NCBI GenBank assembly: GCA_018267435.1
Contig: JAFDYM010000431.1
Coordinates: forward strand, 1 to 27,050
DNA: 27,050 bases
DNA from: Bacteroidota bacterium
GTDB lineage: Bacteria; Bacteroidota; Bacteroidia; Chitinophagales; LD1
Direction of reading: 5' to 3'
Of the stretch, positions 5,984 through 27,050 are shown piece after piece. Each line of letters begins with the position of its first letter. Position 1 is the first letter of the stretch. The position numbers and the translations under genes were made by a program. The notes beneath the pieces are model-generated. The model saw nothing but the letters and a program-made list of their open reading frames with translations. It ran no database searches and was not told where the DNA came from.

Positions 5984-6919
5984 ATGAAGAAGAAAGTACA
6001 ACTGGTATTGGGTAGTGGAGGTGCTAGAGGTATTGCCCATATAGGCGTAATACAACGTTTGCTTGAAGAGGACTATGAAATAGTAGAAATAGTAGGTTGT
6101 AGCATGGGGGCCGTGGTAGGCGGCATGTATAGTGCCGGCCATTTAGAAGCATACACCGAGTGGTTGTTGAAGCAAAGCAAAACGGATGTTTATCGTCTGT
6201 TTGATATTACTTTTTCATTGCACGGCTTAGTTAAAGGCGACCGCATATTTCAGATACTAGAAGAAATGGCGGGCAAGCATGATATAGAAAAACTGAAAAT
6301 TCCCTTTACAGCTATAGCTACTGATATGCACAGCCGTACCGAGGTGCACTTTAACGAGGGAAATCTATTTAAAGCGTTGCGCGCAAGTACAGGAATACCA
6401 GGTGTGTTTACACCTATTGCAGATAGTGGCCGCCTATATGTGGATGGCGCGGTGTTGAATCCTTTGCCTGTAGACGTATTGCACAGACGTAAAGATGCCA
6501 GCATAATAGCTATTAACTTGAACGGAGCTATAGAATCAGACATTATAGCCATACCACAACCACAGCCGCCCGATGAGGAAAAGGCGCCAGCTTTTTGGAC
6601 GCGCATAAAAAGCTATTTTGAAAAAGCCCAAGATGATGCAGCCGAGAAAAAAGAACCCGAAACCATAGAAACGAAAGCAGAGGATCCTGTACCGGTTACT
6701 GTGCCTACGTTTTCTATGTTCGAGTTGCTGAGTGCCAGTTACGATGCTTCGCTTGATAAATTGGCAGCTATGACGTTGCGCGAAAACCCTGTAGATATGA
6801 TAATAGAAATACCGCGCAATACTTGTTCGGTATTCGAGTTTTACCGCGCAGCCGAGTTGATTGAAGTAGGCCGAAAACAGTACGACAAGGCCATGGCTAA
6901 ACAAAAGAGAGAAGACTAG
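5984..6919 (+). CDS. Patatin-like phospholipase (RssA/NTE-like)
   Basis: Oxyanion 'LGSGGARG', nucleophile 'GCSMGA', 'DGA' and an intact family C-terminus 'FEFYRAAELIEVG'. Confidence 0.92.
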   Translation: MKKKVQLVLGSGGARGIAHIGVIQRLLEEDYEIVEIVGCSMGAVVGGMYSAGHLEAYTEWLLKQSKTDVYRLFDITFSLHGLVKGDRIFQILEEMAGKHDIEKLKIPFTAIATDMHSRTEVHFNEGNLFKALRASTGIPGVFTPIADSGRLYVDGAVLNPLPVDVLHRRKDASIIAINLNGAIESDIIAIPQPQPPDEEKAPAFWTRIKSYFEKAQDDAAEKKEPETIETKAEDPVPVTVPTFSMFELLSASYDASLDKLAAMTLRENPVDMIIEIPRNTCSVFEFYRAAELIEVGRKQYDKAMAKQKRED

Positions 6920-7449
6920 GTTACAGAGTTTTCTTCTTCTTGTATTTCACCGGCATTTGGGTCATATTCCGTTTCTACACCTTGTAGCATTATCTGTTGC
7001 CAGTCCTTTTCTCGCCATACATTGTAGTAGTACAATATGGTGTTGAAGCTTATCACATCATCTTTCAAAGCATCGGCATTAGTGCTCATTTCTGTATTGT
7101 TCAGCTCAAGGCTTTTGAATAGAACCAACCCTTCTTCGTTTTTTGCCACATGGTTTTCCAATGCTTCTAAAACAGAGGAAGTAAATGTAAAGCGGTTCAG
7201 TATATTAGGTAGCTCATCAAGTGCGTTGGTATAGTCGGCACACACACAATGCACTTTAATAGTGGCATATCCTTGCTTTACATCATTAGAAAGTGCGCTC
7301 CATTTTATGTTGCCAAAATCTATGAATACAGAAGGAGAAATAATGGCATCCCCACTGCCGGCCGTTTGGCTGTTCCAGATATCTACAACTGCCGTTGGTG
7401 TTTTGGCTACAAGCTTTGTTTGTATAGCTTTTAAATATGGTTTTAGCAT
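6916..7449 (-). CDS. Putative tail terminator/completion protein (Mu gp37-like)
   Basis: 'VVDIWNSQ...PSVFIDFGNIKW...QGYATIKVH' resembles the protein that closes the packaging operon of Bacteroidota Mu-like elements; size and position fit. Function inferred. Confidence 0.55.
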   Translation of the reverse strand: MLKPYLKAIQTKLVAKTPTAVVDIWNSQTAGSGDAIISPSVFIDFGNIKWSALSNDVKQGYATIKVHCVCADYTNALDELPNILNRFTFTSSVLEALENHVAKNEEGLVLFKSLELNNTEMSTNADALKDDVISFNTILYYYNVWREKDWQQIMLQGVETEYDPNAGEIQEEENSVT

Positions 7450-7471
7450 GCTGAGTTTTTTGATAGATTAA

Positions 7472-8602
7472 TTATTGCTGTACAGGTATGCCGAAGGTTC
7501 GCTGTATCCAAGCAGTATCTACTTTATAATGGCTAAGGGCATCTTTTGTTTTGCTCCATAGTGCATCAAGGTCGGTGCTTACGGCCCACTCAAATTTGCA
7601 GTCCGCTACATCAAAGCCGTGCTTCGCCATTTTAGGTAGCAGTTGGTCGTTAATAATAAACTGCAACAAGCGCTTATCGCTTTCGGTTATGCTATCGGCC
7701 ACACGCTCGTGCACCTCAGCCTGGCTACGGCTGCTGCCGCTATCTGCCGTCATGGTTTGACCTATCAATAGTTTGCTTAGTTCGCTATTGGCGCGGTCAA
7801 TTAGTTTGTCATATACATTGTAGGCATCGCCTTTAGTACTTTCTACAAACTCAATGCTCTCACCTTCTTGAAACACAGCATAAGTAGCGCTACCCATTTT
7901 GCGCAGGTTGTTGGCCATGCGCTCCATATCTACTTGTGCACGGCTCGCAGTTTTACCTACCCGCACAGGCATACCAAACACCTCTGTGTATTGGCTCCAT
8001 TGCAGCATAGCATTCTTCTTAAAAATAAAAGCTGGTGCAGCCATCTTCAGCAAACCTAAATCGCGTTCAGTACCTACTTCTATCAGCCAATCACAGTATG
8101 GTGATTCGCGATATGGCAGACCGTTTGCATAATCGCCCTGTGTAATGGCCACTACACCACATTCGGGTATTACATGTCGGCGTGGCACTAGGGCAATTTG
8201 CTCGTAGCCTTTTGTTGTTATGTTCCAAAGCTGTATCAAACTGTGGCCATACCAGCGGCTTTCAAGTGCTAGTTCTATAAATTTGTAAAACCAGCTACTT
8301 TCAAATAGTTGTTTAGAAACGGCACAATCATTGCCTGCACTATCTGTTATCTTAAATTTTTGGGCTAGCAATTTGTTTACACGTTGGCCCAGCAAACCTT
8401 GCACATGTGCATCAAGCAATATTTCATCGTATAGCGCATATAGCTGTAAGCGCTGTGGGTGCGATAGGTTTTCGGCAGTAGCAATGGCAGTACGCCAAGT
8501 GTCAACATCTTGCCGAGTACGCCAATTCGTTTGCTCTATTATGCGGCTGAATACAATGTCTTTATTGGTTGATTTTATTGTATTTGTTTTTTGTTTGGTC
8601 AT
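7472..8602 (-). CDS. Portal protein, DUF935 / Mu gp29-like
   Basis: 'LYDEILLDAHV', 'LGLLKMAAP..IFKKNAM..WSQYTEVFGMPVRVGKT', 'SKLLIGQTMT..SGSSRSQAEVHERV'. Confidence 0.9.
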   Translation of the reverse strand: MTKQKTNTIKSTNKDIVFSRIIEQTNWRTRQDVDTWRTAIATAENLSHPQRLQLYALYDEILLDAHVQGLLGQRVNKLLAQKFKITDSAGNDCAVSKQLFESSWFYKFIELALESRWYGHSLIQLWNITTKGYEQIALVPRRHVIPECGVVAITQGDYANGLPYRESPYCDWLIEVGTERDLGLLKMAAPAFIFKKNAMLQWSQYTEVFGMPVRVGKTASRAQVDMERMANNLRKMGSATYAVFQEGESIEFVESTKGDAYNVYDKLIDRANSELSKLLIGQTMTADSGSSRSQAEVHERVADSITESDKRLLQFIINDQLLPKMAKHGFDVADCKFEWAVSTDLDALWSKTKDALSHYKVDTAWIQRTFGIPVQQ

Positions 8603-8614: not shown

Positions 8615-9322
8615 TTAATGTAATGCATAAGGAATAATGATATTAGCATGGATATTCTCTGGACTTTCAAGGTCGAAAACCCTTACAGGTAAAGGTTGGC
8701 TCCAACTCCATAAGCCCATATCTGAAATCCATACTTCTTTTCTTGTCTTTGCTCCATCGAGTGTTGTCAACAGGTTCCAGTTATCCCCTTGTTTTGCCTC
8801 TATTGCTATTTTCCCAGATGTGTTCTGTAATTCGGCAATTATTGTAAAAGTCATACCAGCGTTTGTTACATTCATCTCATATCCCAACTCTATAGTTCCT
8901 GTTGCGCCACCATCATTGCCCGGTGCGCGCTTGGCTATAAAAAGGGGAACTATATCATATGGGGATTCTTCACTATTATCAGTTAAGCTTAGCCTGCGCT
9001 GTTTTATGAAGGCCTGCACCATGCCGCGCCAATTTTTCGTGTCCTCAGTTGTAACAGGGCACAAATAAGTGTTTGAATTTGCCCCGGTTACATTAGATAA
9101 CCCCCAGTTTCTATATCCCATTCGGTCAGGCTCATTGGTATATCTAAGTTTTATTTCTCCATTTACCACTATAAGAATATCTGTCAATGTGTCCAAATCG
9201 CTTAGTTCCTCTTGATTTTTATCCGGCGGAAATGCTACTTCGATCGTCTGTGAGAATGGCATTACTTTCTCGGGTAGCAAGTCGGTTTTCTTTGGGTTGC
9301 TTATTGTTTCTTCATTTAGCAT
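8615..9322 (-). CDS. Orphan beta-rich protein inserted between gp36-like adaptor and portal; C-terminal module resembles the repeats of CDS 23500-25137
   Basis: Long ORF tightly packed in the operon. Likely start MLNEET at 9322, 10 nt after the upstream stop; the ORF-track start 9367 overlaps the upstream gene. Confidence 0.65.
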   Translation of the reverse strand: MLNEETISNPKKTDLLPEKVMPFSQTIEVAFPPDKNQEELSDLDTLTDILIVVNGEIKLRYTNEPDRMGYRNWGLSNVTGANSNTYLCPVTTEDTKNWRGMVQAFIKQRRLSLTDNSEESPYDIVPLFIAKRAPGNDGGATGTIELGYEMNVTNAGMTFTIIAELQNTSGKIAIEAKQGDNWNLLTTLDGAKTRKEVWISDMGLWSWSQPLPVRVFDLESPENIHANIIIPYALH

Positions 9323-9332: not shown

Positions 9333-9746
9333 TTACCAGCTATATCCATTTGCAGTGTTGCTGCCAAATATGCTGTTGTTGACTGTTGAGTTTATTGCTT
9401 GTAGTGCTGGCAGTACAGGGCTTATCTGCCCTTTGCGAACCATGTCTAGCCACTTAATGGCGGCATTGTACCTATCTAATCGTATCTGCGGTATGTTGCG
9501 CGGTGCGATGGCGCAGAACAGGTGATAAACCGCTATATCTACCATAAACATTTTTATAAGCGGGTTTCTATCATTGCCTGCGGCAGAAAAAATTGCCACT
9601 ACATCATAGCGCTCGCGCAGGTAACTTTCCATCTCGGCTTGTGCCTTGATTTCTACATCCATGCGCACATGGTTATTGTAACCCGTTAGGGCATCTAGCG
9701 CCTGCTCTTTTAGCTGCGCTTTATAATCATCTTCCAGTAAAAACAT
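9333..9746 (-). CDS. Head-tail adaptor, DUF1320 / Mu gp36-like
   Basis: 'AEMESYLRERYDV..IF', 'RNPLI..FMVDIAVYHL', 'RLDRYNAAIKWL..VRKG'. Confidence 0.88.
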   Translation of the reverse strand: MFLLEDDYKAQLKEQALDALTGYNNHVRMDVEIKAQAEMESYLRERYDVVAIFSAAGNDRNPLIKMFMVDIAVYHLFCAIAPRNIPQIRLDRYNAAIKWLDMVRKGQISPVLPALQAINSTVNNSIFGSNTANGYSW

Positions 9747-9757: not shown

Positions 9758-11338
9758 TTAGTAATTGTATTTTCTTTCTCGCTCGCCTATTATCGCGTCA
9801 AGAGTAACGTTTGGCTTGTGTAGCAGCATGTATATGGCTCCTTCGTCGGCATCGGGACTGTCATCGGGTGCGCGGCTGCCAGGCTCGGTAGCCAGTAGCT
9901 GCTCAATGGCAGTAGCAAAGTCGGGGGCGTTCATTTTTTCTTGGCTGTAAAAAACGCAGCCCCGCTCGTAGTAAGGCGCAGTGGCTTCTATGCGTTTATA
10001 CTTATCGGGCTTTTTGCGTCGGTCTTCTCTTATGGGCAACTGCAAGTTTCTTTCTCTTCCTACCTTATCTATTTCGCTCAGTATTATATCCTGCAAAAAG
10101 TTTGTTTCCATGTAGAAGTCGACGATTACATCATTTGGAATCGAGCTGTACAAATCGTATAGATAATTCACCATTACTTGTATATCGGTGCGGCGAACAA
10201 AAGCATCTATCAGGTGTAGTTCCTTGCCGCGCTTGCCCCAAAACTTTACCGCTTTAAAGTCGCTATGCTTTGTGTTTTTGAACGAAGGATCTACATATAC
10301 TACCAGTTTTTCGTATTCATGTAGCGGCAACATTTCTTTCCATTTTATCCATTCGTGCTTAAACACGGTGCCCTCTTCAATAGGGTTGTTCATATACTCG
10401 CGCTCCCAACTGCGCAATACAAGCATCTCCTTCTTTTCGTGCCAATAAGCATTGCTATATTTTTCTACCCAAGTGCTTTCTCCATGCTCATCAAGCGCAT
10501 TTACCTTTAAGTGATACCACCTATACTTTTCATCCTTCTTTGCCACCATCATATCGTGTAGATGTGCCAGTATGCTATGCTTGCTTATGCGGTTATTTAC
10601 GATCAGAAACCTTTCTCTACCTATATCCATGCAGCCCATCAAATCATCCAGCGCCCACTCCACAGCCTCGCGCACTAGCGATGGATTTTTGTTCAGCTTC
10701 TTGCTATCACAATCATCCATTATTATCAGGTCGGGGCGGTGCTCTTCGCTGCGTGTGCCGCGCGGGCTTTGCCCCATGCCTAGCGCATAGAAGGCGCAAC
10801 CCGTGCGTGTAACAAACTCGCCAAGCTTCCACCTATTGCTACTTACCTGCTTGCCATAGTCGTGTATAATGCGGCGGTTGCTGTGTAGCTGTGCTTGTAG
10901 GCCCGCCAAAAGGCGGATGGCTTTTTCTTGTGTTTGTCCTACCAGTATCATGCACTTCAGTTCGCCCAGTGCCATTAGCCAAAAGGGTATACCTATATCA
11001 GCATGCGTGCTTTTGGCCGAACCACGAAAGGCTTCGAATATGCCTTTGAAGTTTTTGTTGTTGCGCATGGCATTGGCTATGCTTACGTGGAACTCGGCCG
11101 TAGGCGCAGTAGCATACATAGGGAAGTAGTATTCAAAAAAGGCGGCATAATTATTCTGCAGGCGTTCAATGCGCGCCGTTTTTTCTTCACTGCTTTCTTT
11201 CAAATCTATTTCGGTGTGCTTGGCTATAGCTAGGCAAGCAAGTTCAAAGCTAGGTGGTAAATCTTTTTCACTCATAAGGTTTAAGGTGTGGCATTCTGTA
11301 AGGGAACACAATTGCATATAATGGACAATGGTGCTCAA
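9758..11338 (-). CDS. terL: Terminase large subunit (Mu gp28-like)
   Basis: Walker A-like 'FRGSAKST', 'RPDLIIMDD' Walker B, nuclease 'VYVDPS', 'DFKA' and C-terminal 'DDSPDADEG'. The true start may be the internal MSEKDLP. Confidence 0.9.
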   Translation of the reverse strand: MSTIVHYMQLCSLTECHTLNLMSEKDLPPSFELACLAIAKHTEIDLKESSEEKTARIERLQNNYAAFFEYYFPMYATAPTAEFHVSIANAMRNNKNFKGIFEAFRGSAKSTHADIGIPFWLMALGELKCMILVGQTQEKAIRLLAGLQAQLHSNRRIIHDYGKQVSSNRWKLGEFVTRTGCAFYALGMGQSPRGTRSEEHRPDLIIMDDCDSKKLNKNPSLVREAVEWALDDLMGCMDIGRERFLIVNNRISKHSILAHLHDMMVAKKDEKYRWYHLKVNALDEHGESTWVEKYSNAYWHEKKEMLVLRSWEREYMNNPIEEGTVFKHEWIKWKEMLPLHEYEKLVVYVDPSFKNTKHSDFKAVKFWGKRGKELHLIDAFVRRTDIQVMVNYLYDLYSSIPNDVIVDFYMETNFLQDIILSEIDKVGRERNLQLPIREDRRKKPDKYKRIEATAPYYERGCVFYSQEKMNAPDFATAIEQLLATEPGSRAPDDSPDADEGAIYMLLHKPNVTLDAIIGERERKYNY

Positions 11339-11413: not shown

Positions 11414-11845
11414 CTACTTCCCATCGCGCATCATTTGGCGCACGTATTCCATTTCGTATATCACTAGCTCGCGCGCTAGCTGTGGTTTTATTTTTACTAG
11501 GTAGTTGTTGAACTCTTCAAGCATATTCATTACAGCTCCGCTATCTATGCGGCGTTCTATTTTGTTTATACACTCGGCTAGCTTGGCTAGCGTGTTGGTT
11601 TCTTTTAGCGTAATGGCGCGTTGCTCGGTACTGGCTTCTTTCATTATGGCCTCGCTTTGTTCGTAGTACAACTGTATTAATGTTTTGGGTGAAAGGTTTT
11701 TTGCCGTGCGCAGTTTCATCCACTCATCATCGCGTATCCAGCCTTCTATGGTTAGCAGGTCTTCGTCTATATAGCGTGTTATATCAAGGGCGTCTAAACC
11801 CTGATCGGCGTATAGCGTACGCGCTAGTTCTTTGTTCCTATCCAT
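11414..11845 (-). CDS. terS: Terminase small subunit (DUF1804-like HTH protein)
   Basis: N-terminal HTH-like 'KELARTLYADQG...I.....LTIEGWIRDDEW' followed by a helical oligomerisation region; directly upstream of terL. Confidence 0.75.
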   Translation of the reverse strand: MDRNKELARTLYADQGLDALDITRYIDEDLLTIEGWIRDDEWMKLRTAKNLSPKTLIQLYYEQSEAIMKEASTEQRAITLKETNTLAKLAECINKIERRIDSGAVMNMLEEFNNYLVKIKPQLARELVIYEMEYVRQMMRDGK

Positions 11846-11913
11846 TATGTATTGTTTGAATTTGTTAGAAGCAGACTGCTTACACCAAGGCCCAGATTTG
11901 GGCTTTGGAAATG

Positions 11914-11946
11914 CAAAGGTCGCACATGTTTAACCACTTCTCCAAA
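11914..11946 (-). promoter_or_regulatory. Putative Bacteroidota sigma-A-type promoter for the packaging operon
   Basis: Minus strand reads TTTG (11946-11943), 21 nt, then GACCTTTG (11921-11914): one mismatch to TTTG-N19-21-TAnnTTTG. Confidence 0.5.
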
Positions 11947-11951
11947 TTCAA

Positions 11952-11988
11952 TTTCCCGCATGGGGGGTTGAACCCCCCATGCGGGAAA
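11952..11988. promoter_or_regulatory. 37-bp near-perfect palindrome centred at 11970 between the divergent promoters
   Basis: tttcccgcatggggggtt-g-aaccccccatgcgggaaa: 18-bp perfect arms around one base. Confidence 0.8.
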
Positions 11989-11993
11989 CCCGA

Positions 11994-12026
11994 TTTGCAA
12001 ATCGCCTTTCGATTGTTGTATCTTTG
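11994..12026 (+). promoter_or_regulatory. Bacteroidota sigma-A-type promoter for the head-tail operon
   Basis: TTTG (11994-11997), 21 nt, TATCTTTG (12019-12026): exact TTTG-N19-21-TAnnTTTG consensus. Confidence 0.7.
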
Positions 12027-12191
12027 CATCGTCAAACGGGTTTTCCGGGTACAACAGGGTAACATATACAGCCCTGTAATTATTCACTTAACAGATATAT
12101 ACTAATCAAGCCAAGCCTATCAATAGGCTTAGAGTTTAATGTTGTGCCAATGCGCAATAGGTATAATGCTGTGCCTTAAACATTCAATAAA

Positions 12192-13172
12192 GTGGCAAAC
12201 ACAAAAGCAGGAACTAAAAAATTTGTGCTTAGCACATCGGGCTTAAACAGCTATGGCTTTCGCATACTTACCGAGGGGGCCGACTTGGAACAATTCAAAA
12301 AAAATCCGGTAATGCTATTCAACCATAGCCGCGATAACGAAAGCTACACAGGCCCTGTGGGCCGATGGCTGAACATAGCTATAGATGGCGATACAATAAC
12401 CGCCGAAAGCGAATTCGACATGAACGATACAAAGGCTGTTGCTTTGGCCCATAAAGTAGAAAACGGCTTTCTGCGTGCTGCCAATTTCGGTATAAAAATA
12501 TTGGAGACCAGCGATGCTGCCGAGCTGATGCTGCCGGGCCAACTGTTGCCCACCGTTACTAAATGGAAGGCTGTAGAAGCCAGTGTGTGCGATATACCTA
12601 GCAACGATGATAGCCTGATACTATACAACATAAACGATGAACGCATTGAACTAACGCAGCAGGGCTTGGTAAATTTCTTTACCCCGCTGCATGCTACCAC
12701 CACTACCGATATGGAATTACTGCAACACCTAAACACCGCGCTTAACCTAAGCGCCGACGCCAAGCAAAGCGATGCACTTACCGCGCTACAACATGTAGCG
12801 AACGAACACAAAACACTGACCGCTGATAATCTACAACTAAAGGCCGAGAACGAGGCCTTGCACAACGAACTGGTAGATGGCCTGGTACAACTAGCCATAG
12901 AACAGAAGAAGATAAGCGCGCACCAAAAGCCCCTGTATGTTGAGCTGATGAAGAAAGACTTCGACAATACACGTAAGTTGATAGATGGCATAAAGCCTGC
13001 TATAAACCTGGCGCAAGCGGTGCACCAAAACTACCACGATACCGAAGACCGTAGCCTGTGGACACTGAACGATTACCGCCAGCGCGACCCCCGCGCACTT
13101 GAACAGATGCGCGTGCAACTACCCGCCAAGTTTCAACAACTGGTGGATGCCTTTGAACAGAGTATCAAATAA
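12192..13172 (+). CDS. Prohead protease (HK97/U35-like) fused to C-terminal scaffold (Mu gpI-like)
   Basis: 'NSYGFRILTEG', 'NPVMLFNH', 'PVGRW', 'GFLRAANFG', 'EASVCDIPSN', then a coiled-coil scaffold region ('LVQLAIEQKKI..QKPLY'). Confidence 0.85.
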   Translation: MANTKAGTKKFVLSTSGLNSYGFRILTEGADLEQFKKNPVMLFNHSRDNESYTGPVGRWLNIAIDGDTITAESEFDMNDTKAVALAHKVENGFLRAANFGIKILETSDAAELMLPGQLLPTVTKWKAVEASVCDIPSNDDSLILYNINDERIELTQQGLVNFFTPLHATTTTDMELLQHLNTALNLSADAKQSDALTALQHVANEHKTLTADNLQLKAENEALHNELVDGLVQLAIEQKKISAHQKPLYVELMKKDFDNTRKLIDGIKPAINLAQAVHQNYHDTEDRSLWTLNDYRQRDPRALEQMRVQLPAKFQQLVDAFEQSIK

Positions 13173-14936: not shown

Positions 14937-14937
14937 C

Positions 14938-17983: not shown

Positions 17984-18017
17984 CCAACTGGCAACAGTCA
18001 ACTATTCAACACAAACA

Positions 18018-18365: not shown

Positions 18366-18376
18366 GCGGCCGCTTA

Positions 18377-18562
18377 ATGACCGACGATACCGACTTGGAT
18401 ATAACCAAGGGCAATGCTTTAATAAGGCATTGCTTCGGTATGCGTGCGGACGATATGGATGACGATGAGTGGTCGCAATACGTAGCTGAGGCCATGTGGC
18501 TAATGGGCTTTAATGCCAAGCTTATAGCGGTAGAGGTAAGCAGGATTTTTTCGACAAGGTAA
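18377..18562 (+). CDS. C-terminal (gpT-like) extension of the tail chaperone, reached by -1 frameshift
   Basis: 'ALIRHCFG..ADDMDDDEWSQYVAEAMWL' resembles the usual 'Lsd.eW' chaperone extension; in the -1 frame relative to 18018-18365. Confidence 0.7.
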   Translation: MTDDTDLDITKGNALIRHCFGMRADDMDDDEWSQYVAEAMWLMGFNAKLIAVEVSRIFSTR

Positions 18563-18580: not shown

Positions 18581-20098
18581 ATGGACAATATAATTTCAGT
18601 AGTACAATCGGTAGAAGCATCTATAGTTCAAATAGAGAACATAACTGTAGAGCTGAAGCTGATGAGCCAGGCCATGCCCAACGTTACCAAGCAGGTAGAA
18701 GAGTTTGCCAAAAGCATGACGAAGCTGAAGAAAAGCTCTACCGATACTTTCATTACCATGGAAGATAAGTTTGGCAACCTAATAACCATGAGCCAAAGAA
18801 CAGAGTCTTCGGATTTTGAAGAAACAAACTCAAGCTCAAGCAAAACCAAAGAGGAAACTAAATGGGAGGTTCCTGTTGTTGTTCCTCCACCTCCGCCACC
18901 ACCACCTCCACCACCTTCACCTCCGCCGCCACTGCCTGGCATGAGTATAGGAGAGGCCATAACCGATATGCCCAAGGCACTTGAGAACTTACGAACGCAG
19001 TATGACAACATAGTAAAAAGTGCCAATGCGTTTAGCGGCTTAGTAGCCGATGTTACCGATGAAGTATTGATACAATCGGGCGCAGCACAGTTTTTAACCG
19101 AGGAGGTACCAGCCATAGGCGATGCGTATAACGCATTGAAAGGCCCTATGCAAGATGTAATGTTTACCGTAGGCGAGGTAGGCGGTGCTGTTGGCGAGTT
19201 TGCCGAAAACTTTCAGAGCGGAGTGGACTTTGCAGCTGAACTAGCAGGTGGTATTAGCAATGCTTACAATGCTGTGGAAGGTGGCTTACAATCCTTCAGT
19301 AACTATATGACTACGGTAAAGGAAATAGACACTATGGTGCGTACCTTAACCGATGCACAAAAGTGGGCTGCCTTTTTTACCGAAGTATATACCGTGGCGC
19401 AAAGCGCGCTGAACGTGGTAATGAACCTATCGCCATGGACATTGGTAATAGGCTTTATACTAGGCTTGGTAGCAGCACTTAAAATGGTGTGGGATAGAAG
19501 CGAAAGGTTTAGGCAAATACTATTCGGCCTGTGGGAGGTAGCCAAGCTGGTGTTTAAAGGTATGTTCGACATAGGCAAAACAGTATTCGATGGCTACGTA
19601 GCTATGTGGACGGGTATAGGCAAGTTGATACTTGGTGTGTTCGCGGCTATAAGCGATGGTGGCAAAATGTTCCGCGAAGGTTTAGCCGACATTAAAAATT
19701 CGGGCCAGCTATTTACTAGCATCCCTGGCAAGTTTGTGGCCATTGGCCAACAAGTAGGCGAGGCTATGGAGAAGGGTAAATTGAAGGGTAGCGAATCGTA
19801 CAAAAAATCGCAGGAAGAAAAAGCGCTGCTAAATGTACCAGCGGCACCTAAGCCCGAAGCCCTTAAAACAGGTGGCGAGGGCGGCTTGGTAAATACGAAA
19901 ACCATAACAGGTAATAGGCCTGGGGAGCATGTAGGTAGTGGCACCAATAACAGCCGCAATATAACCGTGCGCATAGAAAGCCTAGTAAAAGAGATAAACA
20001 TTTTTAGTAACGTAAAAGAAGGCGCGCAAGACGTACGCAGGCTTGTACAGGAAGAGCTAATAGCTGCCGTGCGCGACTTTGAGGGGGCAATAACATAA
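18581..20098 (+). CDS. Tape measure protein (short) with a polyproline tract
   Basis: Position after the chaperones; helical Ala/Gly-rich body, hydrophobic 'ALNVVMNLSPWTLVIGFILGLVAAL...W..SERFR' and C-terminal 'ITVRIESLV...VRRLVQEELIAAVRD'. Confidence 0.8.
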   Translation: MDNIISVVQSVEASIVQIENITVELKLMSQAMPNVTKQVEEFAKSMTKLKKSSTDTFITMEDKFGNLITMSQRTESSDFEETNSSSSKTKEETKWEVPVVVPPPPPPPPPPPSPPPPLPGMSIGEAITDMPKALENLRTQYDNIVKSANAFSGLVADVTDEVLIQSGAAQFLTEEVPAIGDAYNALKGPMQDVMFTVGEVGGAVGEFAENFQSGVDFAAELAGGISNAYNAVEGGLQSFSNYMTTVKEIDTMVRTLTDAQKWAAFFTEVYTVAQSALNVVMNLSPWTLVIGFILGLVAALKMVWDRSERFRQILFGLWEVAKLVFKGMFDIGKTVFDGYVAMWTGIGKLILGVFAAISDGGKMFREGLADIKNSGQLFTSIPGKFVAIGQQVGEAMEKGKLKGSESYKKSQEEKALLNVPAAPKPEALKTGGEGGLVNTKTITGNRPGEHVGSGTNNSRNITVRIESLVKEINIFSNVKEGAQDVRRLVQEELIAAVRDFEGAIT

Positions 20099-20751
20099 TG
20101 GCACAGAATATAACTTTTACAGTTCCTGAAAGTGCTGTAGGCACTCAGAAGGTAGAGTTTGATACTACGCAGGCCGAGCTGATAAAACAGGCATTTGAGT
20201 ATAGCAATGTTGAAACAAAAAACTATGGGCAATCTGCCAAGTACAACCTTTCTAAGATAATGGATGAAGGAAAATCTGCCATGTTCGACTATTCCGTTTT
20301 TATGCCGTTAGTGTTTGAAACAACTACATATAATGTGCTGATAGATGGGCAAGTAAAGCCCGAAGGTGCTAGCACTGAAAAAATGGCTTTTCCTGTAGTG
20401 CTTATAGAGGCAGCGCGTAGTAAGGTAATAGAGGTAACTAGTATTGAAGGTAAAAATGGATCGGTAAAAGAGTTTTCAAATCTTGGCCATTACGATGTAA
20501 GTGTGAAAGGCATATTGGTAGGCGATGATGGCAATTATCCTAGCCAGCAAGTACGCAAGCTAGCCCGGCTAGATAGCCGCCCCGTGGCCATAAACGTAAC
20601 AAACGATTTGCTTGACTTCATAGGGGTAAAGAAGCTGATAATTAAACGCATTAACTGGCGAAGTATGCAAGGCTACGAAAACCTACAGGCTTTCGAGCTG
20701 GAATGTATTAGCGACGAAGATGTGGAATTGGTAATTGAAAACGGATTATAG
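20098..20751 (+). CDS. Tail tube initiator / baseplate protein (DUF6046-like)
   Basis: 'SKVIEVTSIEGKNGSVKEF...YDVSVKG', 'YPSQQV', 'VTNDLL..IGVKKLII', 'QAFELECISD'. Confidence 0.7.
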   Translation: MAQNITFTVPESAVGTQKVEFDTTQAELIKQAFEYSNVETKNYGQSAKYNLSKIMDEGKSAMFDYSVFMPLVFETTTYNVLIDGQVKPEGASTEKMAFPVVLIEAARSKVIEVTSIEGKNGSVKEFSNLGHYDVSVKGILVGDDGNYPSQQVRKLARLDSRPVAINVTNDLLDFIGVKKLIIKRINWRSMQGYENLQAFELECISDEDVELVIENGL

Positions 20752-20754
20752 AAT

Positions 20755-21732
20755 ATGCTACAACTAAGTTGTGAGATAGAAATAGAAGGTGAAAAGTTCG
20801 ACTATGTAGGCGAGGTGCAAATACTTAGTAGCTGGAAAACATTAACCGATACAGCTACTATAAAAGTGCCGCGCAACCTTATAAGCCGAAACAAAATGAA
20901 GCTGAACGATAAAGTGGCAGTAGGGCACAAGGTATCTATAAAGCTAGGGTATAACCTTGAGCCTAGCTTAAGGTTTAAGGGCTATGTAGATGCTATAGGA
21001 GCCGCTACTAACGAAATGGAAATAAAATGCCAAGATGATATGTGGCTGCTGAAGAAGGGCAGCTATACCTGTAGCTGGAAAAATGCAAGCATTGATGATG
21101 TGGTGGGCTTTATAAAAGATAGCTATCAACTAAAGTTTGAGCACGAAACACTTGGCGACTTTGTAAGCCTAGGCCAGTGGAAAGTAGAAGGCCTAAGCGG
21201 AGCTAAAATATTGCAGAAGCTAAAGGACGACTTTGGTATAGGTAGTTTTTTTAGAAACGGCATACTGGTGCTAGGCAAACCCTACGAAACCAAAGTAGAT
21301 GCTAAAAAGGAAATAAGCTTTGCCTATGGCCAAAATGTAATAACGTGGAAGGACCTAACATATAGAGATAAAAAGGACATAAAGCTAAAAACCCGCCTTA
21401 TAAACATGAAGCCCAATGGCACTAAAGAGGAAAGCATAAAGGGCGATGACGATGGCGAAGAGCGCACCCTGCATTTCTACAACTTATCTAAAACAGATTT
21501 AGACAAGCAAGCCGAGGCACTTATAGAACGCATGAAATACAGCGGCTACCGCGGCAAGCTTACCGCCTTTGGTATACCAGCAGTAGCACACGGCAATGTA
21601 GCTGTTATTAAAGATTACCGCATGCCTGACCGCGAGGGCAAGTATTTTATTGATAGCGTAGAAACAACTTTTAGCAGCGGCGGTATGCGCCAGGTATTTG
21701 AACTGGGGCCTGTTGCTGATTACAACACATAG
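20755..21732 (+). CDS. Baseplate hub (late control D / Mu gp44-like)
   Basis: 'SSWKTLTDTATIKVP', 'IKLGY..L..RFKGYV', 'IKCQDDMWLLK', 'YRGKLTAFGIP', 'GKYFIDSVETTF..GGMRQ..ELG'. Confidence 0.8.
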   Translation: MLQLSCEIEIEGEKFDYVGEVQILSSWKTLTDTATIKVPRNLISRNKMKLNDKVAVGHKVSIKLGYNLEPSLRFKGYVDAIGAATNEMEIKCQDDMWLLKKGSYTCSWKNASIDDVVGFIKDSYQLKFEHETLGDFVSLGQWKVEGLSGAKILQKLKDDFGIGSFFRNGILVLGKPYETKVDAKKEISFAYGQNVITWKDLTYRDKKDIKLKTRLINMKPNGTKEESIKGDDDGEERTLHFYNLSKTDLDKQAEALIERMKYSGYRGKLTAFGIPAVAHGNVAVIKDYRMPDREGKYFIDSVETTFSSGGMRQVFELGPVADYNT

Positions 21733-21748
21733 TAAAACCTATAACACA

Positions 21749-22318
21749 ATGACAATACGCGAAGCCATAAGGCAAATGGTAATAGATGTAGCCAGCAAAA
21801 AAATGATACGCATAGGCAAGGCTACCAACATAGATGCCGATAAGTGTATATGCGATGTTGACCTTGGCAATGGCGCTAGCCTGCACGCCGTAAAGCTGAA
21901 AGCAATAGAGGAGGGCGAGGATAAAGGCTTGGTAATAATGCCTAAGCAAGATACGATGGTGTGTGCTGCTATGCTGGAAGGTATAGAAGCTAACTGGAGC
22001 CTGATACAATACAGCGAAATAGAAAGCTGGCAAATAACCACTAGTGGCGGCGCACAAGTAACTGTAGCCGACGACGGCAAAGTATACCTAAACGGCAAAG
22101 ACCATGGCGGCTTGGTAAAGATAGAAGCGCTGGTGGATAGGTTGAAGGAGATAGAGGATACACATGATAAGTTAGTTGACATATTCGATACGCATGTACA
22201 TACAGTATCTAGCGGTACTGCAATAAAATTATCGGCACCCAGTATGACAAAAATGCCAAGTAAGACGAACAAGGATGACCTAGAAAACAAGAACGTGCAG
22301 CATGGCGATGGCGCATAA
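21749..22318 (+). CDS. Baseplate central spike (gpV / Mu gp45-like)
   Basis: OB-fold-like N-terminus ('CICDVD...VKL...LVIMPKQDTMV') and C-terminal metal-binding 'FDTHVH'. Likely start ATG 21749. Confidence 0.75.
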   Translation: MTIREAIRQMVIDVASKKMIRIGKATNIDADKCICDVDLGNGASLHAVKLKAIEEGEDKGLVIMPKQDTMVCAAMLEGIEANWSLIQYSEIESWQITTSGGAQVTVADDGKVYLNGKDHGGLVKIEALVDRLKEIEDTHDKLVDIFDTHVHTVSSGTAIKLSAPSMTKMPSKTNKDDLENKNVQHGDGA

Positions 22319-22332
22319 CAAACAGAAAAAAC

Positions 22333-22641
22333 ATGATAGCAGCGAAAGACATAATGCTTGACGACGACAACGAGTTGATAATAAACAACGGCGACTTTGA
22401 AGTAAAGCATAGCGATGGCCAACACGTAAAGTTGATACTGCTAAGCGAAAAAGGAGCTTGGCGGCAGCAGCCATTCGTAGGCGTGGGTATTCGCAAATTG
22501 ATGAATACTAAACTAGGTAGCCTTGATAGGGGCTTGCTGCAAAAGCGCATAGCCAGCCAGTTGGAGTACGATAGCTATGCAGTAAAAAACATAGCCCTAT
22601 TAACCGAAGGTAAACTAAGCATAGATTATGAACGGATATAA
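22333..22641 (+). CDS. Baseplate wedge / sheath initiator (gpW / gp25 / Mu gp46-like)
   Basis: 'KDIMLDDDNELIINNGDF...SDGQHVKLIL..EKGAWRQQPFVGVGI...QLEYD'. Confidence 0.75.
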   Translation: MIAAKDIMLDDDNELIINNGDFEVKHSDGQHVKLILLSEKGAWRQQPFVGVGIRKLMNTKLGSLDRGLLQKRIASQLEYDSYAVKNIALLTEGKLSIDYERI

Positions 22642-23038
22642 ACAAGTAACAGTAAGCGATAGGCAAAGCTTAACAGATATAGCCATGCAGGAGTACGGCT
22701 GCTACCAAGGCATTTTTATACTGCTAGCTGATAATAGCGATAGGCTATTTGCTATTGACGAAGTGCCACTGCCTGGCATGAAGCTGAATATAAGAACTAT
22801 AGTACCTAGTATAAATGCTGCCAATACTACTGTAGTAGCCGAATACGGAAAGCAAGTCCATAGGGTGCTTAGCCAAGCGGTAGGCGAGGCATTTATAGTA
22901 CAAGTAATATCGGACTATGTAACTACCGACTATATGGATATAACCTATAGCCAGCCACCGGCGCATATAACGGGCCTTAAAATAATGGCCGCCATACCTG
23001 CTAATATTTCTATAAACAATACCAACAATACCGGATAG
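22628..23038 (+). CDS. LysM-like tail protein (P2 gpX-like) with C-terminal extension
   Basis: 'VTVSDRQSLTDIAMQEYG....IFILLADN....D..L.PG..L' degenerate LysM pattern. Confidence 0.65.
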   Translation: MNGYKQVTVSDRQSLTDIAMQEYGCYQGIFILLADNSDRLFAIDEVPLPGMKLNIRTIVPSINAANTTVVAEYGKQVHRVLSQAVGEAFIVQVISDYVTTDYMDITYSQPPAHITGLKIMAAIPANISINNTNNTG

Positions 23039-23042: not shown

Positions 23043-23507
23043 ATGCTTAACACTATAAAAAGAAACATAAAAGGCAGAAGCCTTACACATCAGGAGTTTG
23101 ATAATAATTGGACCGCTATAGAAAGCATAGTGAACAATAACATGCCGCAACAGCGCTACGAAATAGCCATACAAGGATACAATAATGCCGTTGGGCTAGA
23201 TTATGTTGAGGCTTTTATAAGTATAAAAACCTTGGTAGAGCTAAAAGAAATGCCCAAGCTAAAATGCTGGGCTGTAAACCAAGGTGTAATTATAGCTATA
23301 TGCCAAGGCAAAGATTTTTTTGAGGGTTTAAGTTTTCCAATACCTAGCAATACCATACTTAGTCAAACTTATAGCCTAAGGGTAAATATGACCCCTAACC
23401 TTGAGCGCGATTGGGATGCAGTTGCATATCTGCAAGATAGCAACGCACACTTTTCAAACAGTTTAAATATTCCCCCACTAATTTTTTTACAGCAAGCCGA
23501 TGATTGA
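23043..23507 (+). CDS. Putative virion appendage/anchor protein, paralog of the N-terminus of the next gene
   Basis: N-terminal 'IKRNIKGRSLTHQEFDNNW..IE' motif shared with 23500-25137. Confidence 0.55.
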   Translation: MLNTIKRNIKGRSLTHQEFDNNWTAIESIVNNNMPQQRYEIAIQGYNNAVGLDYVEAFISIKTLVELKEMPKLKCWAVNQGVIIAICQGKDFFEGLSFPIPSNTILSQTYSLRVNMTPNLERDWDAVAYLQDSNAHFSNSLNIPPLIFLQQADD

Positions 23508-25137
23508 TTTAATAAAAAGAAGTACAAAAGAGACCCCCTTAACATGGAACGACCTTGATGATAATTGGGCGCAAATAGAAGATAGCCTAAACGCACTGGG
23601 CAACCAGCAACTATATAGCATACAAGATGTAACACATACCAATACTTGCGCTAGCAGCGGGGTAAATAGCCACGTGCTAAGTGCCCATGTACGCTTGCTA
23701 GGTAATGTGCAAGGTGTACCTATGCTTAGGGGCTGTGTAATACTAAATGGAAAGGTAACGGTAGTAGGCGAATCGATGAAGATGTTTTTAGGCAATACTT
23801 ATCCACTTGCCAGCAATGATGTAACAAATGTAGCTGCGGGATATGATGTGGATATAGAAACAGATCAATACCCTGCAACCATTAACGTGTATATGTGGGA
23901 TGAGAAAGGCAACTATGCCGCACCTTATACTTATATCATAGATGAGAACCCATGTGCATTTGTAAATTTAGTGTCGTGTGTAGCTGGGCTGAATGCTGCC
24001 ACATTTGGGCGTACGCTTGATTTTACTGTGCAAGTAAACGGAAGCGATACTTATAAGCTACAGTATTTTGATGGTGATGCCTGGCAAGATCTACATACGT
24101 TTACTACTGCCGAAAGCGAGGTAAGCCTATCGGTACCTATTGCCGATAGTATACCTACAGGCCTGCAGCAGATAAGGGTTGTAGATGTAAGCAACGGTGC
24201 TATAAGCAATACGCTAGATGTATTGCTAAGTTATAGCGATTGGTATGCTTGGCATTTGCCTGCTGTAAGCGAGTGCGACGGCACACAAAAACTTACCATG
24301 ACTTATAACATTGGCAGGATGCCTGCCAGCACTTTGGTGCTTGAGTATGATAGCCCAGCAGGTGGGTGGGAGACCCTTGCCACATATGAGTTTGACACGC
24401 CAATGCAAATGCCATATGCCGGGGGCGAAACAATGGATGTAGACATACCTGCGGGCACCTATAACTTCAGGCTCAGGAACTTGCTAACTGGAAGTGTATT
24501 GCTAAATGAAGGTGTAGACATAATAGCCTGCGAAGATGTGGAGTTGGATATAGAAATAGCAACTGCTGATGTAGTATGTGCCGAAGCTACAGGCTATATG
24601 CGCAAGCTAAATTTACAGCTTGAATTAAATGTTGGCAGTGGCGATTACAAAGTGCAAGTTTACTATGCTGGCTATTGGGGCGATATGCACGAGTTTAGCT
24701 ATACAACAGGTACAGCCCTAGTAGATTTTTATGTGCCAAGCTCGCTACCATGGGGCACGCACAATATTCGCATAATAGATATAGCTAACGACACTACAAG
24801 CAATGAAGTAAGTGTAGCGTTGGCATATACCGACAGCTATGAATGGACGATAGCACCTACAGTTTATTGCGATGGCAGTACACAAAAGCTAGACGCTGCT
24901 CTTACCTTCAGCAACACACCAGCTTCTGCCTTAATACTTGAGGTATATGCAGCTGGAACCTGGGTAGAATTGAGTAGCACTGAAGTGCCTGCCACTGGTA
25001 GCAATACTACTAGCTTAGGCAGCCCTATAATTATAGCTGAGCCGCTTGACGGCACCTACAATGTACGCTTGCGGAATACTATAACCGGCAACTCTATACT
25101 AGCAACAGATGTAGCATTTGCAAGCTGTGCACTGTAG
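23500..25137 (+). CDS. Putative virion appendage/adhesin with anchor motif and four Ig-like beta modules
   Basis: 'IKRSTKETPLTWNDLDDNW..IE' N-terminus; acidic, beta-rich; internal duplication at about aa 173-344 and 370-543. Confidence 0.6.
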   Translation: MIDLIKRSTKETPLTWNDLDDNWAQIEDSLNALGNQQLYSIQDVTHTNTCASSGVNSHVLSAHVRLLGNVQGVPMLRGCVILNGKVTVVGESMKMFLGNTYPLASNDVTNVAAGYDVDIETDQYPATINVYMWDEKGNYAAPYTYIIDENPCAFVNLVSCVAGLNAATFGRTLDFTVQVNGSDTYKLQYFDGDAWQDLHTFTTAESEVSLSVPIADSIPTGLQQIRVVDVSNGAISNTLDVLLSYSDWYAWHLPAVSECDGTQKLTMTYNIGRMPASTLVLEYDSPAGGWETLATYEFDTPMQMPYAGGETMDVDIPAGTYNFRLRNLLTGSVLLNEGVDIIACEDVELDIEIATADVVCAEATGYMRKLNLQLELNVGSGDYKVQVYYAGYWGDMHEFSYTTGTALVDFYVPSSLPWGTHNIRIIDIANDTTSNEVSVALAYTDSYEWTIAPTVYCDGSTQKLDAALTFSNTPASALILEVYAAGTWVELSSTEVPATGSNTTSLGSPIIIAEPLDGTYNVRLRNTITGNSILATDVAFASCAL

Positions 25138-25169: not shown

Positions 25170-25697
25170 ATGAAGCAAACAGAATTTGTTACGCTATACT
25201 ACCCCCATGCCTATGCTGCGCAAAAGCGAACTGGCATATCGGCCACAGCTATATTGGCGCAGGCAGCGCTTGAAAGCGGTTGGGGTAAAGCGGCGCCAGG
25301 CAATATGTTTTTTGGTATAAAAGATACCGATGGCGTAAACGGCAATGAACAGTTGCTAGTTACCGCCGAATACAGCCGCAGGGCCGATTTAAAGTTCCCT
25401 GAAATAATATCTATTACCCCACAACTGCGCAATGGGCAAAAGTGGTTTAAGTATAAAGTAAAAGACTATTTCAGAAAATACGATACGGCCGAAGAGTGCT
25501 TTGTTGACCACTGCAACTTCTTCTACAAAAACAAAAGATACGCCAAGGCGCTACAGGTAAAAGCTAATGCTACAGCGTTTATAAAAGCCATAGCTGAAGC
25601 AGGCTATGCTACCGACCCCGCGTATGCCGAAACGCTATTGGCCGTAGCTAAGAAGATAGATGCTTTAATAACCAAACAGAAAACCAAGACACAGTAA
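25170..25697 (+). CDS. GH73 glucosaminidase/muramidase (FlgJ-like), endolysin candidate
   Basis: 'ILAQAALESGWG' (catalytic Glu), 'GNMFFGIK', 'FRKY' and 'GYATDPAY'; no signal peptide or binding domain. Confidence 0.9.
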   Translation: MKQTEFVTLYYPHAYAAQKRTGISATAILAQAALESGWGKAAPGNMFFGIKDTDGVNGNEQLLVTAEYSRRADLKFPEIISITPQLRNGQKWFKYKVKDYFRKYDTAEECFVDHCNFFYKNKRYAKALQVKANATAFIKAIAEAGYATDPAYAETLLAVAKKIDALITKQKTKTQ

Positions 25698-26611
25698 TGG
25701 CACGCACAATAGAAGAAATATATAACGCTATAGTGGCCGAGAAGCAAAGCTTTGCCGAGCTTGATAACCTTATGCCACAATACAACCTTGCACCGCCTGC
25801 AGTGGGCAACCCCTTTGCCGATATGCTGAACGAAGTAGCATCGGTAAGTAAGGTAGCTATATGGAAGCTATGGATATACCTGGTAGCCGTGGCGCTATAT
25901 ACGCACGAAACGCTATGGGATAAATTTAGGGAAGAAACTGAGGAGATAGCACGGCAAAGCATAGCAGGTAACTTGGCTTGGTATGCAGCGCAGGTTAAGC
26001 TATGGCAATTTGGTTCGCCCTTGCTATGGAACCACACTGCGTATAGGTATTACTACTTAGATGCCGGCACACCGCAAGGCATAGCCAAGCGCCTTGCCCA
26101 AAAGGTAAGCTGCGTAGAAGTAAACAATGCGTTGGTTAATGGCGTGCTTATAAAAGTGGCCCGCGTAAGCGGCGGCATATTGGCACCGCTTACGCCACCT
26201 CAGCTTAGCAGTTTAACCACGTATGTTAACCGCATAAAGTTTGCAGGCGTGCAAACGGCGGTAGTAAGCCTACCGCCCGATAGGGTAAAGCTGAGCTTGA
26301 AAGTATACTACGATGGCACGCTTGACCTTGCTGTGTTTAAAACCGAGCTAGAAGCAGGCATAGAGGCATACCTGCGCAACATAGAGTTTGATGGTGTGCT
26401 GTACTTAAACGAGTTGGTAGATGCCATACAGGCATTGCGCGGCACTAAGGAGCCTTGGGTGTATGTAAACAGCTGCCTATGTGCACCTAACGGGCAGCTA
26501 ACATATACCACCGTGCTTGAAAGGTACGAACCTGTAAGCGGCTACTTTGAACTGGTGCCTATAGGTACCAATATCAATGCCGATACAACCATAGATTATA
26601 TACCCATTTAA
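25697..26611 (+). CDS. Baseplate wedge protein J-like (Mu gp47-like)
   Basis: 'MARTIEEIYNAI', 'SKVAIWKLWIYLVA', 'GNLAWYAAQV..WQFG', 'YVNRIKFAGV..AVVS.PPD', 'AIEAYL.NIEFDG', 'LVDAIQAL.G'. Confidence 0.75.
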   Translation: MARTIEEIYNAIVAEKQSFAELDNLMPQYNLAPPAVGNPFADMLNEVASVSKVAIWKLWIYLVAVALYTHETLWDKFREETEEIARQSIAGNLAWYAAQVKLWQFGSPLLWNHTAYRYYYLDAGTPQGIAKRLAQKVSCVEVNNALVNGVLIKVARVSGGILAPLTPPQLSSLTTYVNRIKFAGVQTAVVSLPPDRVKLSLKVYYDGTLDLAVFKTELEAGIEAYLRNIEFDGVLYLNELVDAIQALRGTKEPWVYVNSCLCAPNGQLTYTTVLERYEPVSGYFELVPIGTNINADTTIDYIPI

Positions 26612-26627
26612 CCCCCGCACTTATACT

Positions 26628-27050
26628 ATGTACTTATGGAATATATACCAATGGGTAGAAAATGAACTACCTGTAGAGGTAAGGCGGCCCACAATGGCAA
26701 AGTGGATGCAAGCACTGCTAAAACCGCTTAAGGAGCTACACAGCTATTTTGAAACCTATAGGCTAGCTACGCTTAAAAAGATGCGCTACAACGGGCAGGT
26801 AATAGTGCTTGAAAACGTACTGAATGATTTGTACGACCCCCTGCTGCGCAGGTTTAGGATAAGCACTACATACGATGTGCTTAACCCGCTGTACATATAT
26901 AAGCAAAACGAAGTAAGCAATACTAACCCTGCACCGTATCTGCGTACCGAGCAAGCCTATGTGCAAGATACGGCCCATGTGCTTACCCGTATATATCTGC
27001 ATACCACTAATGAGTTAGGAGTGCTTTATGACTTTATAGTGTTAGCACCC
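26628..27050 (+). CDS. Baseplate wedge protein I-like (Mu gp48-like), partial; runs off the window edge
   Basis: Manual translation from ATG 26628, open to the end: MYLWNIYQWVENELPVEVRRPTMAKWMQALLKPLKELHSYFETYRLATLKKMRYNGQVIVLENVLNDLYD...YDFIVLAP. 'LP..LR......W...L..P...L' and 'NGQV..LE..LND' patterns. Not in the ORF track. Confidence 0.75.
   Translation, partial: MYLWNIYQWVENELPVEVRRPTMAKWMQALLKPLKELHSYFETYRLATLKKMRYNGQVIVLENVLNDLYDPLLRRFRISTTYDVLNPLYIYKQNEVSNTNPAPYLRTEQAYVQDTAHVLTRIYLHTTNELGVLYDFIVLAP

Follow-up and report, generated by a model that had tools for sequence, protein, structure and literature searches.

What is a cluster of phage-type packaging, head, contractile-tail and lysis genes doing between host genes in the chromosome of a Bacteroidota bacterium: is it a prophage, the remnant of one, or a particle that the host has made its own? 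The cluster begins at position 6916 of the window, the whole stretch of DNA analyzed here, and continues beyond its end. The window is the complete 27,050-bp contig C368 (JAFDYM010000431.1) of a metagenome-assembled genome (MAG) from the Chitinophagales (GCA_018267435.1), which has 553 contigs and is 82% complete. Runs containing window DNA are mostly activated-sludge, wastewater and soil metagenomes. We conclude, with a probability of roughly 60%, that the locus is a domesticated, immobilized and vertically inherited derivative of a transposable myophage of the Hankyphage/fF4 type, residing in an activated-sludge clade of Chitinophagales. The gene content, the loss of mobility genes, the fixed location, the single origin and the purifying selection were each observed. 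Domestication is well supported by sequence comparison, and a decaying remnant explains the data much less well than a domesticated particle locus does. Judged by its genes, the locus is a strong candidate for the first particle of the phylum that resembles either a gene transfer agent (GTA) or PBSX.

The locus in the window

An earlier note on the window had described a tightly packed cluster for packaging, head, neck, contractile tail, baseplate and lysis at 6916-27050, with no transposase, MuB, integrase or repressor inside the window. Pfam and PHROG scans bore out both statements. The cluster is free of gaps and forms two divergent arms, and the Mu-type portal, gp36 and terminase are all present (PF06074, PF07030, phrog_38). 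The features are as follows (aa, amino acids).

5984..6919, plus strand: patatin-like phospholipase of the host, the conserved left neighbor of the element (Pfam PF01734)
6916..7449, minus strand: 177-aa last gene of the portal arm (phrog_6911)
7472..8602, minus strand: Mu-type portal (Portal_Mu; PF06074, 5e-78, full profile), with no MuF domain or gene after it
8615..9322, minus strand: 235-aa fast-evolving orphan between adaptor and portal (no Pfam or PHROG match)
9333..9746, minus strand: Mu gp36-like head-tail adaptor (PF07030, 2.6e-14; phrog_195)
9758..11275, minus strand: TerL, the large terminase, 505 aa from Met22 of a long open reading frame (ORF) (phrog_38, 5e-73)
11414..11845, minus strand: TerS-like small terminase or DNA-binding protein, DUF1804-like (phrog_4151, 3e-15; weak PF08822)
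11846..12191, no strand: putative divergent late promoter region, with a REP-like host repeat at ~11949-12032
12192..13172, plus strand: prohead protease fused to a scaffold-like C-terminal part (PF04586, PF10123, phrog_11321)
13482..14546, plus strand: major capsid protein (phrog_267, 1e-31)
14679..15117, plus strand: two small membrane proteins of 85 aa and 65 aa, candidate holins (hydrophobic segments in each)
15158..15670, plus strand: 170-aa head-completion or neck protein (same-position homologues in the G060 and G065 prophages)
15880..17169, plus strand: contractile tail sheath (PF10758, DUF2586, 7.5e-38; phrog_907)
17300..17728, plus strand: tail tube (phrog_4579)
17949..18562, plus strand: tail assembly chaperone pair, preceding the tape measure (phrog_19076; called as 115 aa and 61 aa in L035)
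18581..20098, plus strand: tape measure protein (phrog_58 and other tape-measure families)
20098..23038, plus strand: baseplate, comprising DUF6046, a gpD-like hub (20755-21732), a 189-aa protein, a gpW-like wedge (22333-22641) and a 136-aa protein (PF19512; phrog_4930, 5e-71; phrog_120)
23043..25137, plus strand: hypervariable 154-aa and 545-aa proteins, likely a receptor-binding fiber module (from their sequence variability)
25170..25697, plus strand: endolysin, N-acetylglucosaminidase (PF01832, 1.5e-28; phrog_3513)
25697..27050, plus strand: 304-aa and 178-aa distal tail-arm genes, the second cut by the contig end (phrog_38413)

The complete element has no mobility genes

The window was extended by exact-protein look-ups of public contigs that bridge its end. 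It is followed, after a 1-nt gap, by the MAG's own contig C486, which overlaps the reversed own contig C309 by 51 nt. The C486-C309 join is matched at 100% identity by a Logan contig from SRR24111718, and no other run has contigs that match the window completely. The junction running from the repressor through DUF3164 to the host gene HPP is present in six independent samples of the same species. A chimeric assembly was rejected, since Logan data from the probable source run, and from further samples too, contain contigs that reproduce both junctions. Rightward of the window the genes are, in order:

tail arm, continued on C486/C309: complete 178-aa gene, 284-aa gene, small reverse-strand ORF, 304-aa protein
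next, in some samples only: 436-aa Fic gene
minus strand: HTH_3 + Peptidase_S24 repressor of the CI/LexA type, predicted to cleave itself (Ser motif GHSMYP, Lys motif LLKRV)
plus strand: early operon of 69-aa, DUF3164, 108-aa and 65-aa genes
after 25 nt, host genes: HPP, TPR glycosyltransferase-like, ABC-F

The complete element is thus ~25.1 kb long, or 26.4 kb with Fic. Pfam and PHROG found no MuA, MuB, MuF, integrase or replication protein in these ~25 kb. MuB was not found between the repressor and DUF3164, near the position that it holds in the G044 and G060 prophages. The assembled genome, at 82% completeness, gave no match to rve (PF00665), DDE_2, PF02914, Mu-transpos_C (PF09299) or Phage_Mu_F (PF04233), a tblastn search with the relatives' MuA was negative, and the four tyrosine recombinase genes of the genome are all on other contigs. 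The 235-, 178-, 284-, 304-, 69-, 108- and 65-aa proteins received no function from PHROG, Pfam (to E = 1) or ESM-Atlas, so no Mor/C-like activator can be named among them.

These results amend the earlier note in part. Its absence of a repressor holds for the window and fails for the element, where the S24 repressor lies in the ~5 kb beyond the window. The note had also allowed that early genes might lie beyond 27050: a four-gene early remnant and the repressor are indeed there, but a transposase/ATPase module is not. The downstream inspection that it proposed, carried out on C486, C309 and public contigs, revealed no transposase, ATPase or terminal repeats.

A circular permutation of a transposable phage

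By TerL, Flavobacterium phage fF4, at 37% identity, is the nearest characterized relative, followed by Hankyphage p00 at 30%. fF4 (MN850656) is an active myovirus that resembles transposable phages (PMC7761591), and Hankyphage p00 (BK010646) is a transposable phage with a CI-like master repressor (PMC12135933; also PMC6199706). Both are arranged as repressor, MuA, MuB, ~10 kb of early genes, a leftward arm to the portal and MuF, and a rightward head-tail arm. Three prophages from other genomes of the host family (G060, G044 and G065; TerL 45-49%), those of G060 and G044 from other genera, have the late-region order of fF4 and Hankyphage and continue past the portal with MuF; in G044 and G060 a helicase-like gene, MuB and MuA follow, and G060 also has a repressor. 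MuF (PF04233) is present in these three prophages and in the phage contig L055. In the window, the position past the portal, which holds MuF and the early module in the relatives, is occupied by host genes. Thus, the early module is not simply beyond 27050. A position for the early genes on the left, as in the relatives, was rejected because host genes are contiguous there in two assemblies.

The element shares with Hankyphage and fF4 the portal, gp36, DUF3164, the divergent two-arm late region and the CI-like master repressor, and with fF4 also the sheath. Whereas those phages have MuA, MuB, MuF, many early genes and variable sites, this element lacks those genes, occupies one fixed site and has a circularly permuted order. 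In L055 the homologue of the 65-aa gene closes the early operon, 3 nt away from where the portal arm ends, and the 177-aa gene has a portal-arm homologue there. The element is therefore opened exactly where the portal arm and the early operon converge in the phages, and only 70 nt separate its tail end from its repressor end. The result is the Hankyphage/fF4 gene order circularly permuted, an arrangement that insertion by transposition does not produce. A circular or tandem form may have recombined with the chromosome, or the ancestor may have had another integration system.

The junctions are tight. On the left the stop codon of the patatin gene overlaps that of the last portal-arm gene, the two being convergent, and on the right 25 nt separate the element from HPP, so that transposon ends would not fit in. 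The two ends have no terminal inverted repeat in common and neither junction has attachment site (att)-like spacing. The only direct match between the ends is an 11-nt word inside the host flanks, which is not a target duplication.

One location in five lineages

The same gene order was found in four further lineages (runs SRR33953792, SRR29660192, SRR30452384 and ERR3928896), with TerL 71-79% identical. Contigs of all four runs carry TerS, TerL, gp36, the orphan (242-357 aa), the portal (376-377 aa) and a 167-203-aa gene, followed by convergent patatin and then LysR, Exo_endo_phos, rhomboids and MutL. The right half was recovered in two of the four runs, with an unchanged gene set as far as the repressor, then the repressor, the 69-aa gene (59 aa in one), DUF3164 and the 108-aa and 65-66-aa genes, and has HPP, TPR, ABC-F and CysS as its flank. 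There is no mobility gene on any contig of these lineages, and neither an empty site nor a second location occurs among the contigs recovered. The synteny check that the earlier note had called for therefore came out in favor of a fixed site, with patatin on the left in the four lineages and HPP on the right wherever that junction was recovered. Since the loss of MuA, MuB and MuF is common to all five lineages, it predates their split.

Between lineages, host flank proteins are 71-82% identical (CysS 93-96%) and element proteins 60-73%, and the ranks agree. In the TerL tree the six sequences from the element group together with 100/100 support, and a long stem sets this clade apart among the phage TerLs. 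Within the limits of five lineages, the congruence with the host that the note had suggested looking for thus holds, in clade and in identity ranks.

The element is missing from the genus's 39 other species representatives, none of which has a TerL more than 51% identical. Their HPP is 61-69% and their patatin 60-62% identical, and such low flank identity indicates that the carrier clade has no other member in that set. These genomes were also rejected as a source of empty sites (patatin/HPP orthologues 57-69% identical, no common neighbors). A first metagenome scan with patatin alone gave no matches, and an alignment-based scan returned only more distant relatives, one of them useful. In this outgroup contig (L093), ABC-F, LysR and patatin lie within 8 kb of each other and phage genes are absent, which implies that both flanks were neighbors before the insertion.

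Positions 1-6919 of the window are ordinary host genes: LPG-synthase-like, dienelactone hydrolase, Fe-ADH, PuuD-like peptidase C26 and patatin. Patatin orthologues ~60% identical exist in genomes without the element. Patatin adjoins the element in all five lineages, and only in the lineage of this MAG (G000) is the flank beyond it rearranged (PuuD/Fe-ADH in place of LysR/Exo_endo_phos). The constancy of patatin next to an altered outer flank reflects a rearrangement of local extent or, alternatively, some functional connection between patatin and the element.

Purifying selection and a variable, probable fiber module

Synonymous divergence (dS) between lineages is saturated, yet all ORFs, ~30 per lineage, are open. 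Within species, two pairs (dS ~0.08-0.14) gave a pooled ratio of nonsynonymous to synonymous divergence (dN/dS) of 0.09-0.10 for the element minus the fiber genes, and neutrality was rejected with P < 1e-49. With the fiber genes included the values are 0.10 and 0.25, and the host flank has 0.06-0.12. The test of dN/dS proposed in the note thus yields ~0.1, like the host flank.

The ATPase and nuclease catalytic motifs of TerL are invariant in all lineages. Head genes, compared between comparable lineages, are 82-85% (portal), 71-79% (TerL) and 74-80% (protease) identical. The capsid gene has the same length in the SRR30452384 lineage, and the protease Ser is kept in all orthologues. Conservation of the head genes is no weaker than that of the tail genes. 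The 154-aa and 545-aa proteins depart from this pattern: in a variant of the same species (L044) they are 50% and 88% identical, with neighbors at 96-100%, and between lineages they are 33-44% identical. Such variability is as expected of a receptor-binding module under diversification.

Signs of residence in the host

The earlier note had pointed to REP-like hairpins in the spacers and to a host-like codon style, and both observations are sound. The spacer repeats at ~11339-11413, 11949-12032, 13247-13370 and 15688-15754 occur on 20, 15, 12 and 7 other contigs of the genome, respectively. They are short elements that resemble repetitive extragenic palindromes (REP) or miniature inverted-repeat transposable elements (MITE), and public contigs of all four runs break at repeat spacers, including 11846-12191.

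Relative synonymous codon usage (RSCU) of element and host correlates with r = 0.945, GC content at third codon positions (GC3) is 0.467 against 0.472, and the tetranucleotide distance also matches. ATA is the dominant Ile codon in both. Among the genes sampled, its share of Ile codons is 48-84% in the host clade and 57-75% in the element, against 21-43% in related phages and prophages. In host genes, ATA makes up 23 of the 30 Ile codons of ABC-F and 28 of 35 in a putative CysS (C309), and it is also the commonest at window positions 3885-5036. GTA is a preferred Val codon of the host. This ATA/GTA habit is unusual for bacteria and is common to the sister lineages, but not to the G060 host gene sampled. 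In three DNA runs, reads cover the element and the host flank to the same depth, as expected of a quiescent single-copy locus; this depth is uninformative on cargo. Run X20, labelled RNA, was set aside as evidence of expression because it is probably DNA.

Individual genes of the element

The protease nucleophile codon at 12483-12485 reads AAT (Asn) in the window and AGT (Ser) in Logan contigs of four runs. A G at 12484 is found in contigs from all four, including the likely source, and the orthologues all have Ser. The Asn of the window is a minor allele or an assembly error and is unrepresentative. The N-terminus of the capsid protein (window 13482-13650) has ~55 hydrophobic residues with two hydrophobic segments predicted by hydropathy analysis, and the gene has the same length in sister lineages. 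At the position of the candidate holins, the SRR30452384 lineage has genes of 84 aa and 66 aa. Homologues of the distal tail-arm genes occur in fF4 and G044. L001, a Chitinophagales MAG, was rejected as a relative, since it shares only the distal 304-, 178- and 284-aa genes, within a different cluster.

In the packaging arm, the 177-aa gene is 37% identical to a 174-aa portal-arm gene of L055 and 74-76% identical in sister lineages, and portal identity across these lineages is 82-85%. The TerS-like gene sits at the TerS position of Hankyphage. The orphan varies from 235 to 357 aa by lineage and is found only in the immobilized clade, being absent from L055, G044, G060, fF4 and Hankyphage. Its L054 and L066 orthologues show a partial match, to a portion of the 545-aa fiber-like protein. 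An 80-aa ORF listed in 11846-12191 is probably not a gene.

Between the distal 304-aa gene and the repressor, a 436-aa Fic/DUF4172 gene (L035, 11837-13147) is cleanly absent from other samples, including this MAG. Its presence or absence amounts to a 1366-bp indel within one species, where the tail end meets the repressor. The 304-aa protein beside the repressor has an N-terminus like a signal peptide. The switch region between the repressor and the 69-aa gene (L029, 3114-3182; L030, 11266-11434) contains a TGCCAA-N-TTGGCA palindrome and repeated TTGACAA, and its repressor-proximal half is conserved between lineages despite saturated synonymous sites.

Elsewhere in the genome, an orphan TerS-like gene lies on own contig C260 (L032) at 3455-3913. 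It has 26-37% identity with TerS from related elements, and no terminase or other phage genes were recognized beside it. The L055 phage (TerL 62%) has, at 11973-14549, its portal fused to MuF and an ADP-ribosyltransferase toxin domain (858 aa), with reverse transcriptase and methyltransferase genes near this fusion.

How the particle may be made and used

Control appears, from the genes present, to rest on the element's own S24 repressor, with a link to the host that may run through RecA. By analogy with PBSX, pyocins and the CI-like master repressor of Hankyphage (PMC12135933), we propose the following mechanism. DNA damage would activate RecA, and the S24 repressor would then cleave itself. 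This would allow expression of the early operon (69 aa, DUF3164, 108 aa, 65 aa), one product of which would switch on the divergent late promoters at 11846-12191. The terminase would fill heads with DNA of the chromosome, a cargo that we propose because the locus no longer replicates by transposition. The holins and the glucosaminidase would release the particles, which would bind kin or competitors through the fast-evolving 154/545-aa fiber module. The operator-like palindromes of the repressor region were not found again at the late promoters. The palindrome that lies between the divergent promoters belongs to the REP/MITE-like repeat and is therefore unlikely to be a dedicated operator. The benefit to the host could be gene transfer, as with GTAs, killing of rivals, as with PBSX, or both.

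A bolder form of this proposal strikes us as possible but rather doubtful. The locus would be the first GTA-like system of the Bacteroidota, derived independently from a transposable phage, and a dedicated engine of lateral transduction that exports the chromosome outward from patatin and HPP. Mu-type terminases begin packaging at a pac site within the integrated element and load neighboring DNA into the heads, so a single, fixed copy that does not replicate would work as such an engine. The cargo, which might include the element together with its flanks, would be delivered to kin chosen by the fibers.

Points against domestication and alternative explanations

Several points weigh against a domesticated particle. 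The particle is predicted from its genes, and its induction, its DNA cargo and its effect on target cells are proposals. MuF, a head protein, is missing from the element. With the MAG at 82% completeness, a transposase could lie elsewhere in the genome. Proteins of the element diverge faster than those of the host flank (60-73% against 71-82% identity). The clade is shallow, with CysS 93-96% identical and five lineages known, and the lack of the element in the 39 other representatives makes it young compared with RcGTA. Relatives package 32-43 kb, against a 25-kb locus. Head capacity may therefore exceed the locus, in which case the cargo would not be smaller than the locus as expected of a GTA, and strict GTA membership is not established.

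An autonomous temperate phage with one and the same point of entry in every species, reached by an unrecognized recombinase or by self-transduction with homologous recombination via the flanks, seems to us improbable. It would account for the permuted order, which resembles the outcome of recombination between the chromosome and a circular form at the meeting point of portal arm and early operon. It would also fit the retained repressor switch, the several proteins of no known function and the heads of relatives, which hold more than 25 kb. However, Pfam and PHROG recognize no integrase, transposase or replication protein, and the one unknown protein beside the repressor, of 304 aa, has the signal-peptide-like N-terminus. 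Recovered contigs show no att-like spacing, empty site or second location, the divergence ranks of host and element agree, and read depth equals that of the host.

We give about as little credence to a defective prophage that has stayed intact by chance, having lost its early region, and is slowly decaying with no function for the host. The absence of transposase, MuB and MuF, the restriction to one shallow clade, with none in the other 39 genus representatives, and the faster evolution of the structural proteins relative to the host flank would be in line with such decay. But the loss of MuA, MuB and MuF predates the split of the five lineages, synonymous sites have become saturated since, and ~30 ORFs are still open, with dN/dS ~0.1 and with the TerL motifs and the operator region conserved. 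Neutral DNA would have gathered stops and frameshifts over this time.

A tail-only weapon (tailocin), with head and packaging genes as unused leftovers, would match the contractile tail, baseplate, lysis genes and hypervariable fiber of R-type pyocins but is very unlikely indeed, as TerS, TerL, portal, protease and capsid are all present and as well conserved as the tail genes, and the catalytic motifs of TerL and the protease Ser are kept.

Comparison with known particles

PBSX-type defective prophages are phage-like bacteriocins with GTA-like properties. Like those of the Bacillus subtilis group, the domesticated locus described here is chromosomally fixed in a species group and inherited vertically within it, is controlled by a repressor, has terminase, head, contractile-tail and lysis genes, and lacks genes for integration and replication. 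The damage-inducible logic would also be shared, as proposed above. The two differ in that there is no sequence relationship, the ancestry here is of the Mu/Hankyphage type and the host belongs to the Bacteroidota, and the repressor is a self-cleaving S24 type by its motifs, in contrast to Xre in PBSX. The cargo of PBSX is 13.4 kb (PMC12946183).

GTAs such as RcGTA, BaGTA and VSH-1/BhGTA are viriforms as defined in PMC9662315. With them the locus has in common that it is a phage-derived structural locus without replication or mobility genes of its own, immobile alone, with host-like codon usage and vertical inheritance under purifying selection, at a modest clade depth. It differs in its independent domestication, its contractile tail, its phage-type repressor instead of the known host regulators, and its confinement to a single locus; compared with RcGTA, this clade is much younger. 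R-type pyocins and other contractile tailocins likewise have a domesticated contractile tail, lysis genes, diversifying fibers and a repressor of the S24 type (PrtR), but they are without head and packaging genes, which here are intact and under selection.

The GTAs that a 2026 survey lists as characterized come from Rhodobacterales, Desulfovibrio, Brachyspira, Bartonella, Caulobacter and Methanococcus voltae only (PMC12946183, PMC9662315), and no GTA of the Bacteroidota was found in the literature searched (PMC12946183, PMC9662315). The earlier note had suggested a host-maintained GTA or particle system without a repressor. A host-maintained element is what emerges; the lack of a repressor does not stand, and a PBSX-like killer is equally possible.

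Few GTAs or PBSX-like particles are known, and for a metagenomic locus the comparative evidence is unusually complete: it covers five lineages and both junctions, points to a single origin, and includes statistics on selection as well as an element-free outgroup. The locus offers a concrete target in activated sludge for studying how a transposable phage becomes a particle owned by its host. It bears on whether Mu-type packaging from a fixed site moves neighboring chromosomal genes, and on what such particles may contribute to gene flow or strain competition in wastewater communities.

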